Positions 47,989 to 53,541 of a stretch of 64,000 nucleotides of DNA are shown one piece after another. The translations under genes and the position numbers were made by a program. Where the stretch lies: assembly GCA_048463395.1 (NCBI GenBank), contig DBFWPL010000019.1:2668-66667 (forward strand). The letters are read 5' to 3'. Position 1 is the stretch's first letter, and every line of letters starts with the position of its first letter. A model generated the notes under the pieces. That model did no database searches. It worked only from the letters and a program-made list of their open reading frames with translations, and had not been told where the DNA came from. Source of the DNA: Alphaproteobacteria bacterium (GTDB taxonomy: Bacteria > Pseudomonadota > Alphaproteobacteria > RF32 > CAG-239).

Positions 47989-48735
47989 TTATTGTAAAGG
48001 CGGGATATTTAACTGAGCAATACTCCCCGGCTTGATTTTTATGTTAGAATAACGCATATTTCCGGTTTCAATAACAAATCTTTGTCGTCCCGTCAACTGC
48101 GAAGCCAAATCATAAAAATCTCTGGCATTGAGTTCTTGTCTTTGCGGATTCATAATATACAAAACGCAGCCTTGTGTTCTTTCCGCAATACCGCAACGGG
48201 CACGGCCTCTCGGTACTTCCGGATTAATAACAACCCCCTGTAAACCGTCTCTGACGATTGTCTCTTGCGTAAAGAACAATTTAGCCAGACCAAAACCGAC
48301 AATGAACATAACAATACCAATCATGGCAACAATTTTTGTAGAAACGTTGCCTGCGGCAAACTGCTCGGAAACAGAATACTGTGGAGCAGCCAAATCTTGA
48401 TCATCTAAAAACTGTGGTGTAAAGTCATTTTCGTTGTTAAAAACATTTTTGTTTTCATTTAAGGCAGGAACATTGGTAATGCCTGTAGATTGAGCATTGC
48501 CGCCATCCAAAAATTCATCCAGATTAAAATCTTCGTCAAAATTCGTTCCTGTCGGAGCAGATGGACGCTGCTGAAAATTTTGTCCCTGCATTCCGGGTGC
48601 TCTCGGTGGAACCGGAGCTCCGTTCGGATTGCTGACCAGTTTTTTTACCGGGCGTTTTACTTTTTTTAATTTAGGACGGTTAGGATCTGCCGGTCCCTGT
48701 GTCATGCCGTTGTTATTGAAAATATTATCGTCCAT
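47989..48735 (-). CDS. bitopic inner-membrane protein (disordered cytoplasmic N-terminus, periplasmic C-domain); possible secretin partner
   Basis: 248 aa. P/N/Q-rich N-terminal 130 aa, one TM (IVAMIGIVMFIVGFGLAKLFF) and a roughly 95-aa C-terminal domain. Immediately downstream of the secretin-like gene. Confidence 0.4.
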   Translation of the reverse strand: MDDNIFNNNGMTQGPADPNRPKLKKVKRPVKKLVSNPNGAPVPPRAPGMQGQNFQQRPSAPTGTNFDEDFNLDEFLDGGNAQSTGITNVPALNENKNVFNNENDFTPQFLDDQDLAAPQYSVSEQFAAGNVSTKIVAMIGIVMFIVGFGLAKLFFTQETIVRDGLQGVVINPEVPRGRARCGIAERTQGCVLYIMNPQRQELNARDFYDLASQLTGRQRFVIETGNMRYSNIKIKPGSIAQLNIPPLQ

Positions 48736-48746
48736 TGTAATGCCTC

Positions 48747-50584: not shown

Positions 50585-50664
50585 TTATACAACTCCTCAA
50601 TTCTAACCTTTAATTTAGTTTAGCGGAAGATGTTTGTAAATTGTTTTCTCCAACCTTTACCCAA

Positions 50665-53541
50665 TTATATATTGCCGGGTTTGTAAGGTTCATTGTTCTC
50701 TTCATTATCCAGCTCTGCAATGCCGATATTTGTCTCCTGAAGATTGTCAAACAGTGGCTGAGCAGGGGTGGAAGTTACCGGTGTGAGAATGTCCTGTTGA
50801 AAATAAATATCTTCTGAGGAATTTTGAGTTTGCTCTGTGTTGTCGGACAATAAATTTTGATAAGGATCGGAGACTGTATTTTCCGGAGAAGATATCGCAT
50901 TATCCGAAACCGCTTCTTGCGAAAAATTTTCTTGTATCTCGACCATATTTTCATCAGATTGCTCAACGGAAGGAAGATTTTCCACCTCATTCTCCGGAGA
51001 AGTTTCAACCGGCAGAGGCACTTCTTCTGTCATTTCATGTTCGGAAGAACCTTCATCAGTATCCTCTTCGTATTCCCATTCCCACTCTTCGCCTTCACCG
51101 TTATTGTCGTCAGCATGTTCAGTTAGGTCGTCTTCTTTACCTTCGGGAGAAAGATTTTCTTCTTCTGCATCTTCTTCATACTCCCATTCCCATTCTTCTT
51201 CAGTGTTTTCCGTTTCGGAATTGGAGCTTGCATCTAATGAAGTTATATCCGCTGTCTCGGTTTCGGCGTTTTCTGCGGGAGAATCTTCCTCGGTGTCTTC
51301 CTCATATTCCCACTCCCAGTCTTGTTCTTCCTCATGCTCCGGAACAGCTTCGACCGACAGAGGCACTTCTTCTGTCATTTCATGTTCGGAAGGGCTTTCA
51401 TCAGTATCCTCTTCGTATTCCCATTCCCACTCTTCTTCAGTGTTTTCGGAGGCATCCAAAGACTGATTCTCTTCAGGAATGTCTTCCGGTTCATCGGCAT
51501 ATCTGTCCGCATCCAAATCAATCGGAGCGGTATCTTCATTGTCAAAATCGCTCAAAGATACAAATTCAGTCTCCGGTAGTTTGTCAAGAAACGTGTTTTC
51601 TTCTTTCTCTTGCGGTTCAGATTCGGCTTCAGGGTTTTCTTCCCAAACCGGCGTTTCTTCGGAAACATTATCAGGAAGGGGATTGTCCAAAGGGATAGTT
51701 TTTATCTCCTCAGTTTTTTCGGTAATGTCAAGGTCTGAAGACGTGTTGTCAAAATCATCTTCACCGCTGAACGATTCAATCTCCGTATTTTCTTCACTCT
51801 CTTGAGGAAGGATATTTTCTGTTTCTGAAAATTCTTCCTGAATATCAAAATCCTCGGTTTCTTTTTCATCTTCAACAAACAAAGACGTTTCCTGTTCCTG
51901 AAGTCCTTCTTCACTTTCATCAGGGCTCTCTGCCTCTTTATAAGTCCGGTCTTGTTCTTCTTCCGGTTCATCGGAAAAAGTTTCGGTTTCATTTATTTCC
52001 GGATTATTCTCTAATTCAGAAGATGGGGAAGCTTCTTCTTCGGCATATTCCCATTCCCAGTCTCCGTTTTCAGCCGTTTCTTCTGCAAGGATATCTTCTT
52101 CGGGAGAGCTTTGTTCCTCTAAACCGGAGGTATCTTCTTCAGTATCGGCACTGGCTTCCTGATATTGCCATTCAAAATCATCTTCACTGCTGTTATCATC
52201 AGAGAGCGGCATATCGGTATTATGGTCAAAATTCCCGTTATCATCGCTGTCAAATAGTGATGTATCCAGAGCCGGAGAACTTTCCTGAACAGGAGGTGTT
52301 TCCGCATTTTTAGGAGAAACTTCTTCATACTCCCAAGCCCATTCCTCACCGTCTTCATTATCGGTGGGCAATTGTTCTTCGTGGTTTACATAGACATATT
52401 CATATCCGTCTTCTGATTCGGTTTCTTGGGCGTTTTGTTCTTCTAGAGCTTGATCATCGGTTGCTTCTGATTCCGAGGATTTTTTTTTCTTTTTCTTCGG
52501 TTGGGCTTCTTCTTCCGAAGCTGCCTCTGCTTCTGCTTCCGTTAATGTTTCGGGAATATCATTTATGTCGGTTTCTCCCTTTTGAGCAATGGCAGAAGTT
52601 TCTGAAATTCCCTCTTTTTGTACGGGAAAGGATTCTTTTTGAGGCATCGTAACTTGAACAATAGGCTCTTGCACAGGTGTACGGGAAAGGTTCATGCTTA
52701 AAAGAGCAATATTTTCTTTTTGAAAAGCTTTTATTGCATCAACAATTGTCTGTGTTGACATCTGCTGGCTTTCCTTAAGGGCAAGGGAAATGATGGATGA
52801 CAATTCTTCGGTTTGTGTTTTGGCCATTTCCCGAAAGAGTTCGGACTGGGCTTTGACAATACCTGAAATCATATCTTCAATCGGCGGGAAAGTTGCCGCT
52901 GTATTAATCTGAATATTATTGGCATTATTGTTGGAGCTGTTGCTGGCTGCCGCCGTATTATTCTGCAAAACCATTTTAGCCAAAGCGTTTTGTGAACTGA
53001 GAATGGCTTTCGTCAGCTGTTCGGATTCTTTCTTACGGTTGGCCTCCGTGTATAGCATGGCCTCCTTGAAAACAGAAGCAAATTCTTTGGCAAATGAGGC
53101 GTCGGCAACGATTTTTCCTGAAGCAGCCGTTGCTTGAGGACGAACAACTTCCTCTCGGACAGGTGCTGGTTTTTCCGGTTCCTGCATTTGTGCCTTTTTC
53201 TCTTGCTGGGCTCCGGCTAAAGCAGAAGCCAAAATTTGCGAATTAGAAATTTCTCCTGATGAATTATCTGTCGTACCTCCGGAAAGACCGGCTTGTTGCT
53301 CTAAATCATCTACGTATTCTTGCAGAATAATTCCTCCCGGAAGGGATGAGAATATTCCTCTGATTTCAGGAGCCAGCTCCAAGACCATTTTGTTGAAAGC
53401 TTCTTTTCTTTCCGGGCTGAAAATATGAAGTTGGCGGAAAATGTTTAAAAAACGCTGTGCGACAATAATAGGGTCTTCTTCATTGCCTTTTTTTAAGTAG
53501 CTTTTTTTCAAGCCGGTATTTTTTTGCAGCGTATCTGCCAA
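50665..53541 (-). CDS. 958-aa protein: folded N-terminal domain + extremely acidic tail with ~8 W-E-W-E-Y-E-E repeats
   Basis: N-terminal roughly 330 aa are ordinary in composition. The rest is D/E/S/T-rich with repeated EEEWEWEYEEDTDE.SSEHEMTEEVPL units. The DNA is also repetitive, for example 51031-51100 versus 51377-51446. Confidence 0.55.
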   Translation of the reverse strand: MADTLQKNTGLKKSYLKKGNEEDPIIVAQRFLNIFRQLHIFSPERKEAFNKMVLELAPEIRGIFSSLPGGIILQEYVDDLEQQAGLSGGTTDNSSGEISNSQILASALAGAQQEKKAQMQEPEKPAPVREEVVRPQATAASGKIVADASFAKEFASVFKEAMLYTEANRKKESEQLTKAILSSQNALAKMVLQNNTAAASNSSNNNANNIQINTAATFPPIEDMISGIVKAQSELFREMAKTQTEELSSIISLALKESQQMSTQTIVDAIKAFQKENIALLSMNLSRTPVQEPIVQVTMPQKESFPVQKEGISETSAIAQKGETDINDIPETLTEAEAEAASEEEAQPKKKKKKSSESEATDDQALEEQNAQETESEDGYEYVYVNHEEQLPTDNEDGEEWAWEYEEVSPKNAETPPVQESSPALDTSLFDSDDNGNFDHNTDMPLSDDNSSEDDFEWQYQEASADTEEDTSGLEEQSSPEEDILAEETAENGDWEWEYAEEEASPSSELENNPEINETETFSDEPEEEQDRTYKEAESPDESEEGLQEQETSLFVEDEKETEDFDIQEEFSETENILPQESEENTEIESFSGEDDFDNTSSDLDITEKTEEIKTIPLDNPLPDNVSEETPVWEENPEAESEPQEKEENTFLDKLPETEFVSLSDFDNEDTAPIDLDADRYADEPEDIPEENQSLDASENTEEEWEWEYEEDTDESPSEHEMTEEVPLSVEAVPEHEEEQDWEWEYEEDTEEDSPAENAETETADITSLDASSNSETENTEEEWEWEYEEDAEEENLSPEGKEDDLTEHADDNNGEGEEWEWEYEEDTDEGSSEHEMTEEVPLPVETSPENEVENLPSVEQSDENMVEIQENFSQEAVSDNAISSPENTVSDPYQNLLSDNTEQTQNSSEDIYFQQDILTPVTSTPAQPLFDNLQETNIGIAELDNEENNEPYKPGNI

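Follow-up and report, generated by a model that had tools for sequence, protein, structure and literature searches.

Introduction

Type II and type III secretion, type IV and Tad pili and filamentous phages use secretins as their gateways in the outer membrane. FimV promotes the assembly of the secretin PilQ, and FimV and HubP organise secretin-containing machines; these two proteins and TspA have a peptidoglycan-binding domain in the periplasm and a single transmembrane segment, and their cytoplasmic part is long, acidic and repetitive. By the current view, type IV secretion systems (T4SSs) assemble a pore of their own in the outer membrane from VirB7, VirB9 and VirB10 and borrow no more of a secretin than an N0 domain; to our knowledge no full secretin domain works with a T4SS. 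We describe here a four-gene operon, A958-B186-C423-D248, found at positions 47,989–53,541 of a 64,000-nucleotide (nt) stretch from an Alphaproteobacteria bacterium (GTDB lineage RF32; CAG-239; assembly GCA_048463395.1, contig DBFWPL010000019.1, positions 2668–66,667), hereafter called the window. The operon encodes a highly diverged lipoprotein of the secretin superfamily and lies next to a VirB-type T4SS.

The closest described systems each share a part of this arrangement. Legionella DotD (PMC2951367) and Xanthomonas VirB7 XAC2622 (PMC3093366) are T4SS lipoproteins with a secretin-type N0 domain, and they demonstrate that T4SSs do borrow secretin parts. The type IVb pilus secretin BfpB (structure 9u5s, PMC12531336) consists of a lipidated cysteine, a linker, the N0 domain, a single N3-like domain and the secretin domain, and has no S domain. 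The interaction between GspC and the secretin GspD has also been described (PMC3169554).

The Four-Gene Operon

The four open reading frames (ORFs) were all located on the minus strand, where the earlier note, a reading of the letters made without database searches, had placed an operon. A958 (53541..50665, 958 amino acids (aa), TTG start) came first and was followed by B186 (50584..50024, 186 aa, with a good ribosome-binding site, GGAG), by the lipoprotein C423 (50018..48747, 423 aa) and by the bitopic protein D248 (48735..47989, 248 aa), with spacings of 80, 5 and 11 nt. A terminator-like hairpin with a T-run was present directly 3' of the D248 stop codon (47953–47980, minus strand), and a second one, a consensus match, ended the gene upstream of A958 (53640–53679, minus strand). 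A weak −35/−10 match, by consensus only, preceded A958 at 53620–53593 on the same strand. The consensus scan revealed no terminator-like site on the coding strand between the two hairpins. With hairpins at both ends and no such site inside, the consensus scans fit a single four-gene transcription unit in which A958 would be the first gene. Direct Pfam and NCBIfam scans of the four proteins gave no meaningful match.

The Secretin-Superfamily Lipoprotein C423

C423 possessed a VVSC lipobox whose cysteine, Cys25, was invariant among 27 homologues, and it ended with ...VVFMVPRIIRT, the protein stopping 12 residues past the last secretin strand. Two other cysteines, Cys71 and Cys332, were invariant in the family. 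The close homologues numbered 915, none of them named, from metagenome-assembled genomes of gut Alphaproteobacteria. A profile of the 27 homologues matched 209 proteins when compared to 1.84 billion representatives, and its matches to Secretin-bearing proteins had E values from 2.3e-15 to approximately 3e-7 in a set of that size. All ten distant full-length matches that were tested, with E values from 2.3e-15 to approximately 2e-7, carried the Pfam Secretin domain, some of them together with STN and a fused TcpQ. The best NCBIfam similarities of the distant secretin relatives, all below threshold, were to MshL, PilN and GspD, with weak ones to HofQ and PilQ.

The two families were then compared with hhalign in a non-circular manner, using 32 C423-family members (alignment A6) on one side and 30 secretins (alignment A7) on the other. 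The probability was 100%, with an E value of 1.4e-40 over 382 columns, extending from the lipobox to the final strand (...ELV..PR.I). None of the 32 members, which share 25–44% identity, appears to match PF00263, as deduced from a scan in which the hits were not listed member by member; the scan of alignment A5 (46 sequences, including 14 more distant secretin-like proteins) gave 13 matches to this family, presumably all among those distant proteins. The A7 secretins matched the PilN-type secretin of the window itself with an E value of 5e-23. Between the C423 family and this single protein, hhalign gave a weak match (E 0.005), and BLASTP of C423 showed no similarity to it. The C423 family is linked to the PilN-type secretin of the window transitively, via the A7 family. 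On plasmids of cultured bacteria, such as Rhodoferax NC_007901, the A7-type secretins sit in type IV pilus-like clusters. These sequence comparisons show that C423 is a relative of lipoprotein secretins encoded in type IV pilus clusters on plasmids.

The AlphaFold model of C423 had a mean predicted local distance difference test (pLDDT) score of 57, with values of 66–82 over aa 181–410. In a Foldseek search of the PDB the top 36 matches were all secretins (BfpB, XcpQ, GspD, PilQ, InvG and RcpA) and 34 matches had an E value of 0.001 or less. The best one was BfpB (E 3.5e-8), and TM-scores were approximately 0.2. Weak flavodoxin and integrase matches, obtained with the single C423 sequence against PDB sequences, were taken as chance.

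The domains of C423 were unequally preserved. The N0–N3 region (aa 103–246, 49281..49712, minus strand) was of normal length, spanning 144 aa as compared to a median of 146.5 in canonical relatives. The model showed a beta-alpha-beta-beta-alpha pattern at aa 181–239, the N0 part being of low confidence, and weak Foldseek matches were seen to the N0/N1 crystal structures 6rwk, 4ec5 and 3ezj. The strongest homology to Secretin/STN proteins covered aa 90–330. The secretin (pore) domain (aa 247–411, 48786..49280, minus strand), ending with ...ETVVFMVPRII, was shortened: from the conserved start to the terminal PR motif it measured 162 aa (151–173 in the family) versus a median of 226 in the relatives. 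Three deletions, relative to BfpB and the other relatives, explained this shortfall of approximately 65 residues. They were placed using the matches of the A5 profile to BfpB, PilQ and GspD, which are partly circular as A5 contains real secretins and which served for this placement only. Approximately ten strands were predicted for the pore domain in the monomer model.

C423 is thus shown by sequence comparison to be a true, highly diverged secretin-superfamily lipoprotein in which N0–N3 is intact and the pore shortened, and it is a new subfamily of a known superfamily. The assignment to the secretin type made in the earlier note was borne out, and no match to VirB9, TraK or another non-secretin family was found.

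Conservation of the Operon Beside T4SS Genes

The survey retained one genome per species. A C423 relative was encoded in 248 genomes, and the counts were made over 108 loci. According to the record titles, the hosts were gut or faecal Alphaproteobacteria, for example 'Proteobacteria bacterium CAG:495', 'Azospirillum sp. 51_20' and Candidatus Scatocola. At 98% identity, a water-deer caecum genome had the nearest C423 relative. All four operon genes were present in 66 of the 68 loci with room for them. Upstream, VirB6-like genes were found in 63 of 67 loci with room, and a double helix-turn-helix regulator in 64 of 67, with 74–100% identity among close relatives. Downstream, the VirB11/VirB10 genes were present and convergent in 56 of the 72 loci with room. 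The T4SS neighbourhood claimed in the earlier note was confirmed in the window, with VirB11/VirB10 on one side of the operon and VirB6-like genes on the other. In the window the regulator is a 324-aa double-XRE protein with two Pfam HTH_3 domains, encoded upstream of the operon (54234..55208, minus strand). It was among the best-conserved proteins of the block and is likely a regulator of the operon or of the T4SS.

Two loci, L100 and L101, showed the order virB10-virB11-A958-B186-C423-D248 on one strand. The position after virB11 is the one at which Rickettsiales encode virD4 (PMC2653234). In distant metagenomic loci, where C423 was 31–34% identical, the regulator, an A958-type N-terminal module, the secretin and D248 were all kept, and the two longest of these loci additionally carried a B186-type domain and VirB6-like genes. 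The four genes are co-inherited as a unit beside T4SS genes across lineages, down to this 31–34% identity of the secretin. The identity ranges across species were unequal: 31–86% for A958, the fastest-evolving protein of the block, 62–98% for C423 and 84–100% for VirB11. Decay or an artefact was ruled out for the operon by the conservation of C423, which at 62–98% identity had more than 100 invariant columns. Literature searches on the T4SS biology of this bacterial group returned nothing relevant.

A rearrangement was observed in the distant loci L083 (6846–9669) and L084 (6943–9583). The A958 N-terminal module was there a separate protein of approximately 275 aa, and an acidic region, rich in E, P and V and devoid of WEWEY units, was fused to a B186-like domain in a protein of 580–648 aa. 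Such domain shuffling between adjacent genes is expected of proteins acting as one complex, and A958 and B186 may form one.

The relatives of C423 could suggest another affiliation, in which the operon would be a second, specialised secretin sub-complex of the type IVb pilus encoded at 5.9–17.7 kb of the same window, its adjacency to the T4SS reflecting the usual co-location of conjugation and thin-pilus genes. The nearest canonical relatives of C423 are T4P-type (type IV pilus) lipoprotein secretins with a fused TcpQ, found beside T4P ATPase and platform genes on conjugative plasmids, and BfpB was the best match both structurally and in the PDB-profile search. However, the pilus cluster has its own full-length secretin and TcpQ-like partner. 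The operon is approximately 30 kb away from it and, in nearly all loci, has T4SS genes on both sides, with the same-strand arrangement after virB11 in L100 and L101. None of its four genes codes for a pilin, an ATPase, a platform protein or a TcpQ-like protein. We regard this affiliation as quite improbable.

The Acidic Protein A958

A958 contained 28% D+E overall, and the net charge of residues 331–958 was −210. The protein had no signal peptide and no transmembrane or other hydrophobic segment (maximum 19-aa hydropathy of 0.87), and it is predicted to be cytoplasmic. Its N-terminal helical module (aa 1–330, 52552..53541, minus strand) had only 49 detectable homologues (alignment A4), 200–575 aa in length, with 31–86% identity across species. 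The best-conserved part was located at aa 20–85 (EDPIIVAQRFLNIFRQLHIF...LPGG..LQEYVDDLE), and a second conserved block read NNNANNIQIN...QSELFREMAKTQTEELS. A poly-Lys tract (K349–K354, 52480..52497, minus strand) separated this module from the acidic tail.

The tail carried aromatic-acidic units. The earlier note had counted about eight units of the form WEWEYEE; the motif scan did find eight, between 51070 and 52404 on the minus strand, five of them exact WEWEY and three degenerate. The exact ones began at aa 495, 705, 742, 784 and 820 (nt 52059, 51429, 51318, 51192 and 51084, reading downward), and the degenerate ones were YEYVY at aa 380 (nt 52404), WAWEY at aa 401 (52341) and FEWQY at aa 456 (52176). 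The units were dispersed and not in tandem, with a spacing of 21 to 210 aa, so that the description in the earlier note proved slightly generous. When the tail was shuffled 20,000 times the expected number of WEWEY was 0.0005, and no shuffle reached five exact or eight total units. The WEWEY-type motif was absent from all other proteins of the window. Near the end of the protein, an E-P-Y (aa 951–953, 50683..50691, minus strand) corresponded to a conserved (D/E)P(Y/F) located 5–8 residues from the C-terminus.

Orthologues were read from 61 loci of species-level genomes. They varied from 450 to 1061 aa in length and from one to nine in the number of motif copies per protein. The strict motif was counted 153 times in them, and its consensus read G-(Q/E)-D-W-E-W-E-Y-E-E-(V/E)-P. 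Every full-length orthologue examined had the motif in its generalised form, [DE]W[EVIA]W[EDV]Y, with variants of the DWVWDYEEE type where the strict form was missing. A poly-Lys tract of K4–K14 existed in nearly all orthologues, and the (D/E)P(Y/F) near the C-terminus in most of them. The persistence of W-x-W-[ED]-Y, of the poly-Lys tract and of (D/E)P(Y/F) while the flanks diverge is a clear sign in these sequences that the motifs are under selection. In an extended strand, the W-x-W-x-Y alternation would bring its three aromatic rings to the same face.

Three side observations were made on the tail. A 111-nt internal duplication (50980–51090 and 51325–51435, 90% identical), encoding EWEWEYEEDTDE.SSEHEMTEEVPL, shows recent repeat turnover in which the core motif remained unchanged. 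A second recurrent tryptophan motif, (D/S)DDWGFG, and a motif N-W-L-G-x-V-E-E-E were seen in the tails of several orthologues (L001–L080) that had only one W-x-W-x-Y. On the plus strand, several ORFs of 85–156 aa antisense to the tail (51104–51698, 50857–51126 and 52023–52313), whose peptides are rich in Ser and Phe, stem from the GAA/GAG richness of the coding strand and are probably not genes.

No described family accounted for A958, in agreement with the earlier note. The protein had no Pfam, NCBIfam or PDB match, the A4 profile of its N-terminal family found nothing relevant in the PDB either, tblastn of the N-terminal module against plasmids gave no match, and per-member Pfam scans of the family showed no consistent domain. 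Literature searches found no W-x-W-x-Y motif. Helical-repeat matches of the N-terminal module in the PDB-sequence search were taken as chance. Of the roles considered in the earlier note for the polyanion, as DNA mimic, scaffold, cation binder or substrate, the evidence from these sequences favours a scaffold or a substrate.

The second of these roles leads to the main rival explanation of the operon. A958 would be an effector translocated by the T4SS and B186 its chaperone or adaptor, only C423 and D248 being parts of the machine; the W-x-W-x-Y units would bind a protein of the target cell multivalently, and (D/E)P(Y/F) would be part of the translocation signal. T4SS signals usually lie near the C-terminus, and A958 has its conserved motif fewer than ten residues from it, at the end of a long disordered tail with short motifs. 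Its rapid evolution, the range of lengths (450–1061 aa) and of repeats (1–9), the lack of a signal peptide or transmembrane segment and the restriction of the motif to this one protein of the window are all in keeping with an effector. Signals of the VirB/VirD4 type are usually basic, whereas the C-terminus of A958 is acidic, and the 64-kb window lacks a gene for a VirD4 coupling protein. For an effector it would be unusual to keep a constant gene order with the secretin operon, as A958 does in 66 of 68 loci and over wide evolutionary distances, and the B186-like domain that would be the chaperone carries the acidic region as a fusion in distant lineages. We consider an effector role unlikely on balance.

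B186 and the Bitopic Protein D248

B186 is a well-conserved soluble helical protein without hydrophobic segment, predicted to be cytoplasmic. It was found in 80 of 80 loci with 57–98% identity, and 50 columns of alignment A3 were invariant. No Pfam or PDB match was obtained with the single sequence or with the A3 profile, no consistent Pfam domain was seen across members, and tblastn against plasmids was negative.

D248, with 647 homologues, possessed one hydrophobic segment (aa 135–153, nt 48277–48333, mean Kyte-Doolittle value of 2.4) with a basic N-side. The preceding residues, aa 1–134, formed a disordered cytoplasmic tail that was variable except for short motifs. The main one was L-K-K-V-K-R-P, in which K25, K27 and P29 were invariant in both alignments; FNLD..LD and QPQFI were also present. 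The basic motif existed in all close relatives whose N-termini were inspected and was absent in the two distant loci examined. Its covariation with the WEWEY motif of A958 gave no clean signal. The periplasmic domain (aa 160–248) was nearly invariant, including Cys181 and Cys190, which were fully so. In the AlphaFold2 model only the transmembrane helix was confident, the periplasmic domain having pLDDT values of 41–63, and Foldseek found nothing. Pfam, NCBIfam and PDB-sequence searches, with the single sequence or a profile, gave no match, Pfam scans of the individual family members showed no consistent domain, and tblastn against plasmids was negative.

The partner described as GspC/PilP-like in the earlier note was retained in part: a bitopic protein with a pair of cysteines in its periplasmic domain is encoded directly downstream of the secretin, but the searches linked it by homology to none of GspC, PilP and TcpQ. 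The likeness to GspC and PilP would be one of arrangement, not of demonstrated homology. A TcpQ/BfpG-like partner was rejected, the comparison with TcpQ-bearing proteins giving a probability below 1%. An impression from the sequence that the periplasmic domain is LysM-like was supported by no Pfam scan.

A Model for the Operon

We tentatively propose that the operon forms a conserved trans-envelope module accessory to an expanded VirB-type T4SS, one with rvh-like gene duplications that uncultured gut Alphaproteobacteria carry on their chromosomes. In this model, C423 would multimerise in the outer membrane, and its ring would serve the T4SS as a conduit or collar on the outside or as a ring for assembly across the wall. 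D248 would span the inner membrane, and its disulfide-bonded periplasmic domain would contact the N-terminal rings of C423 in the manner of GspC, PilP and GspB. Its cytoplasmic tail, through the conserved short motifs, would recruit B186 and A958. The polyanionic disordered tail of A958, approximately 600 residues in length, with its multivalent W-x-W-x-Y 'stickers', would act as a cytoplasmic scaffold or docking cloud under the machine. Basic substrates or ATPases might be retained there, or the cloud might place the apparatus in the manner of FimV and HubP with secretin-containing machines.

A possible independent parallel lends some support to this model. On the plasmid NZ_CP031358 of Erythrobacter aureus YH-07 (locus L110, 5885–10942), a short secretin of 377 aa, WP_115418396, matched the C423 family with an hhalign probability of 98.4% (E 4.6e-15). 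It is encoded directly after WP_115418395, a 1304-aa multi-transmembrane protein with a strongly acidic region of approximately 300 aa. No T4SS gene was annotated within 10 kb of this locus.

The same locus can be turned in favour of an autonomous envelope device. The operon would then form a DNA uptake or release port, with a secretin similar to PilQ or HofQ and with A958 as a DNA mimic, or else a cation-binding device or a landmark of the cell pole. A polyanion with a charge of −210 and stacked aromatics could imitate nucleic acid, the bridging secretins are weakly similar to HofQ and PilQ in NCBIfam, the window has no VirD4, and the Erythrobacter pair has no T4SS gene annotated within 10 kb. 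However, no DNA-binding, nuclease, ComEA-like or ComEC-like gene is present in the operon, the consistent T4SS neighbourhood is left unexplained, and nothing supports such a device specifically. It appears very unlikely.

Several observations weigh against the proposed accessory module of the T4SS. Gene linkage is the only tie between the operon and the T4SS, and in 14 of 72 loci no VirB11 was found in the downstream flank. The T4SS cluster already has a VirB7-like protein, VirB9 and VirB10, a complete outer-membrane core, so that a second ring is not obviously needed. C423 had no Pfam match at E≤1, PF00263 included, and no match to an NCBIfam secretin or to PilN (TIGR02520), and PDB-sequence searches with C423 alone or with the A6 profile of its own family retrieved no secretin. 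The modest quality of the model, computed for a monomer, also counts on this side, and a pore shorter by approximately 65 residues may compromise the double barrel and the periplasmic gate. The contacts of D248 with the secretin and with A958 and B186 are purely hypothetical. Finally, the fast evolution, the variable repeat number and the conserved C-terminal motif of A958 speak no less for an effector than for a scaffold.

A bolder form of the accessory-module proposal may be formulated, which we regard as doubtful. This T4SS would be the first with a full secretin-domain protein, having co-opted a trimmed pilus-type secretin and coupled it, via a bitopic protein, to a polyanionic docking platform encoded at the usual gene position of VirD4; the platform might take over the recruitment of substrates.

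The presence of a secretin inside a T4SS cluster varies a known secretion-system architecture in a new way, and A958, B186 and D248 are without described relatives. With a secretin homologue placed in a T4SS cluster throughout a lineage, the range of known secretin partners would widen, and an unexplored T4SS architecture would be indicated in widespread uncultured gut bacteria, a C423 relative being encoded in 248 species-level genomes. C423 would offer a natural 'minimal' secretin pore domain of approximately 160 residues for probing the role of the deleted segments. With A958 a new short motif is described, [DE]-W-x-W-[ED]-Y, which the protein combines with the poly-Lys tract and the conserved C-terminal motif.

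Surroundings in the Window

The VirB-type T4SS, encoded on the plus strand between 18.4 and 47.3 kb, comprised VirB4, two VirB8, a VirB7-like protein, VirB9, VirB10 and VirB11. The core stretch (34526–47310, plus strand) showed unusual additions. A 62-aa VirB7-like lipoprotein (35389–35577, plus strand) was encoded between the two VirB8 genes, VirB9 carried a C-terminal SPOR domain, and the gene between virB9 and virB10 coded for a protein of 1286 aa in which beta-flower, DUF3659 and RHS repeats were present. VirB10 itself (41900–46327, plus strand) reached 1475 aa, with beta-flower repeats ahead of its TrbI domain, and VirB11 followed at 46342–47310 on the same strand. Four large proteins with signal peptides were encoded inside the cluster (24393–26822, 26819–27616, 27585–29471 and 29468–34510). 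No VirD4-type coupling protein was found in the 64-kb window; among the ORFs checked a Walker A motif was seen only in VirB4, and the other ATPases of the window were VirB11 and the pilus ATPases.

The VirB6-like genes (55874–62985) flanked the operon on the side opposite VirB11/VirB10. One of them (55874–59656, minus strand) encoded a protein of 1260 aa in which an M23 peptidase is fused to a VgrG3-like C-terminal domain of the cell-wall hydrolase type and to a VirB6/TrbL membrane domain. It could be a wall-remodelling enzyme of the T4SS, or the hint of a bacteria-killing system. Two small secreted proteins (53674–54099, minus strand, and 55414–55842, plus strand) flanked the regulator. One had a marginal match to the Pfam family LprI (lysozyme inhibitor), and the other was weakly similar without a Pfam match. 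The pair was detected only in the closest relatives L001 and L002, and weakly in L046. These are possibly immunity-type proteins tied to the nearby peptidoglycan hydrolase domains.

A complete-looking type IVb pilus cluster of the R64 Pil type occupied positions 5940–17709 on the minus strand. It encoded a TcpQ-like protein (15212–15907), the PilN-type lipoprotein with a Pfam Secretin domain (13615–15231), PilO (12322–13599), a pilus ATPase (9268–10917) and a T2SSF platform protein (8109–9242), together with two ORFs whose N-termini, read by eye, were pilin-like (5940–6569 and 6824–7468), all on this strand. With this canonical secretin, C423 is the second one of the window, as had been claimed. 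A further T2SSE-family ATPase was encoded at 3193–4155.

Comparison with Known Systems

C423 resembles BfpB, R64 PilN and TcpC in the order of its domains, in the lipobox cysteine and in the absence of an S domain. BfpB was its best match by fold and by PDB profile, and its profile–profile homology to T4P-type secretins extended over the full length. It differs from these proteins by a pore domain approximately 65 residues shorter, by the lack of a direct Pfam Secretin or PilN match and by the content of its operon, which has neither a TcpQ/BfpG-like partner nor pilus genes and whose neighbours are those of a T4SS.

Within T4SSs, the nearest likeness is to DotD and XAC2622, which, as predicted for C423, are outer-membrane lipoproteins with an N0 domain encoded in a T4SS cluster. 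They keep the N0 domain only, whereas C423 keeps N0, N3 and the whole, though trimmed, pore domain. In addition, and unlike in these two cases, the cluster next to C423 has a separate small VirB7-like lipoprotein. The cluster itself may be compared to the rvh T4SS (PMC2653234), with which it shares a duplicated VirB8, several large VirB6-like proteins and a virB8-virB9-virB10-virB11 block. No secretin-like module is described in rvh. The VirB9 of the window has a SPOR domain, no VirD4 follows virB11, and beta-flower repeats are present in the 1475-aa VirB10 and in the extra 1286-aa protein.

D248 resembles the GspC homology region, PilP, GspB and ExeB proteins in being bitopic, in being encoded directly after the secretin, at a distance of 11 nt, and in having a small conserved periplasmic domain. 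It differs from GspC, PilP and GspB in the lack of sequence or profile similarity, in the long cytoplasmic tail with motifs of its own and in its partners, which are not ATPases. With FimV, HubP and TspA, the operon has in common an acidic, repetitive and disordered cytoplasmic region that would be functionally tied to a secretin-containing machine. The Erythrobacter pair shares this trait, its acidic region being part of a membrane protein beside a short secretin. No homology to these proteins and no LysM or FimV C-terminal domain was found in the operon proteins, and W-x-W-x-Y is not a feature of FimV, HubP or TspA. The acidic region of the operon is carried by the soluble A958, apart from the membrane anchor.

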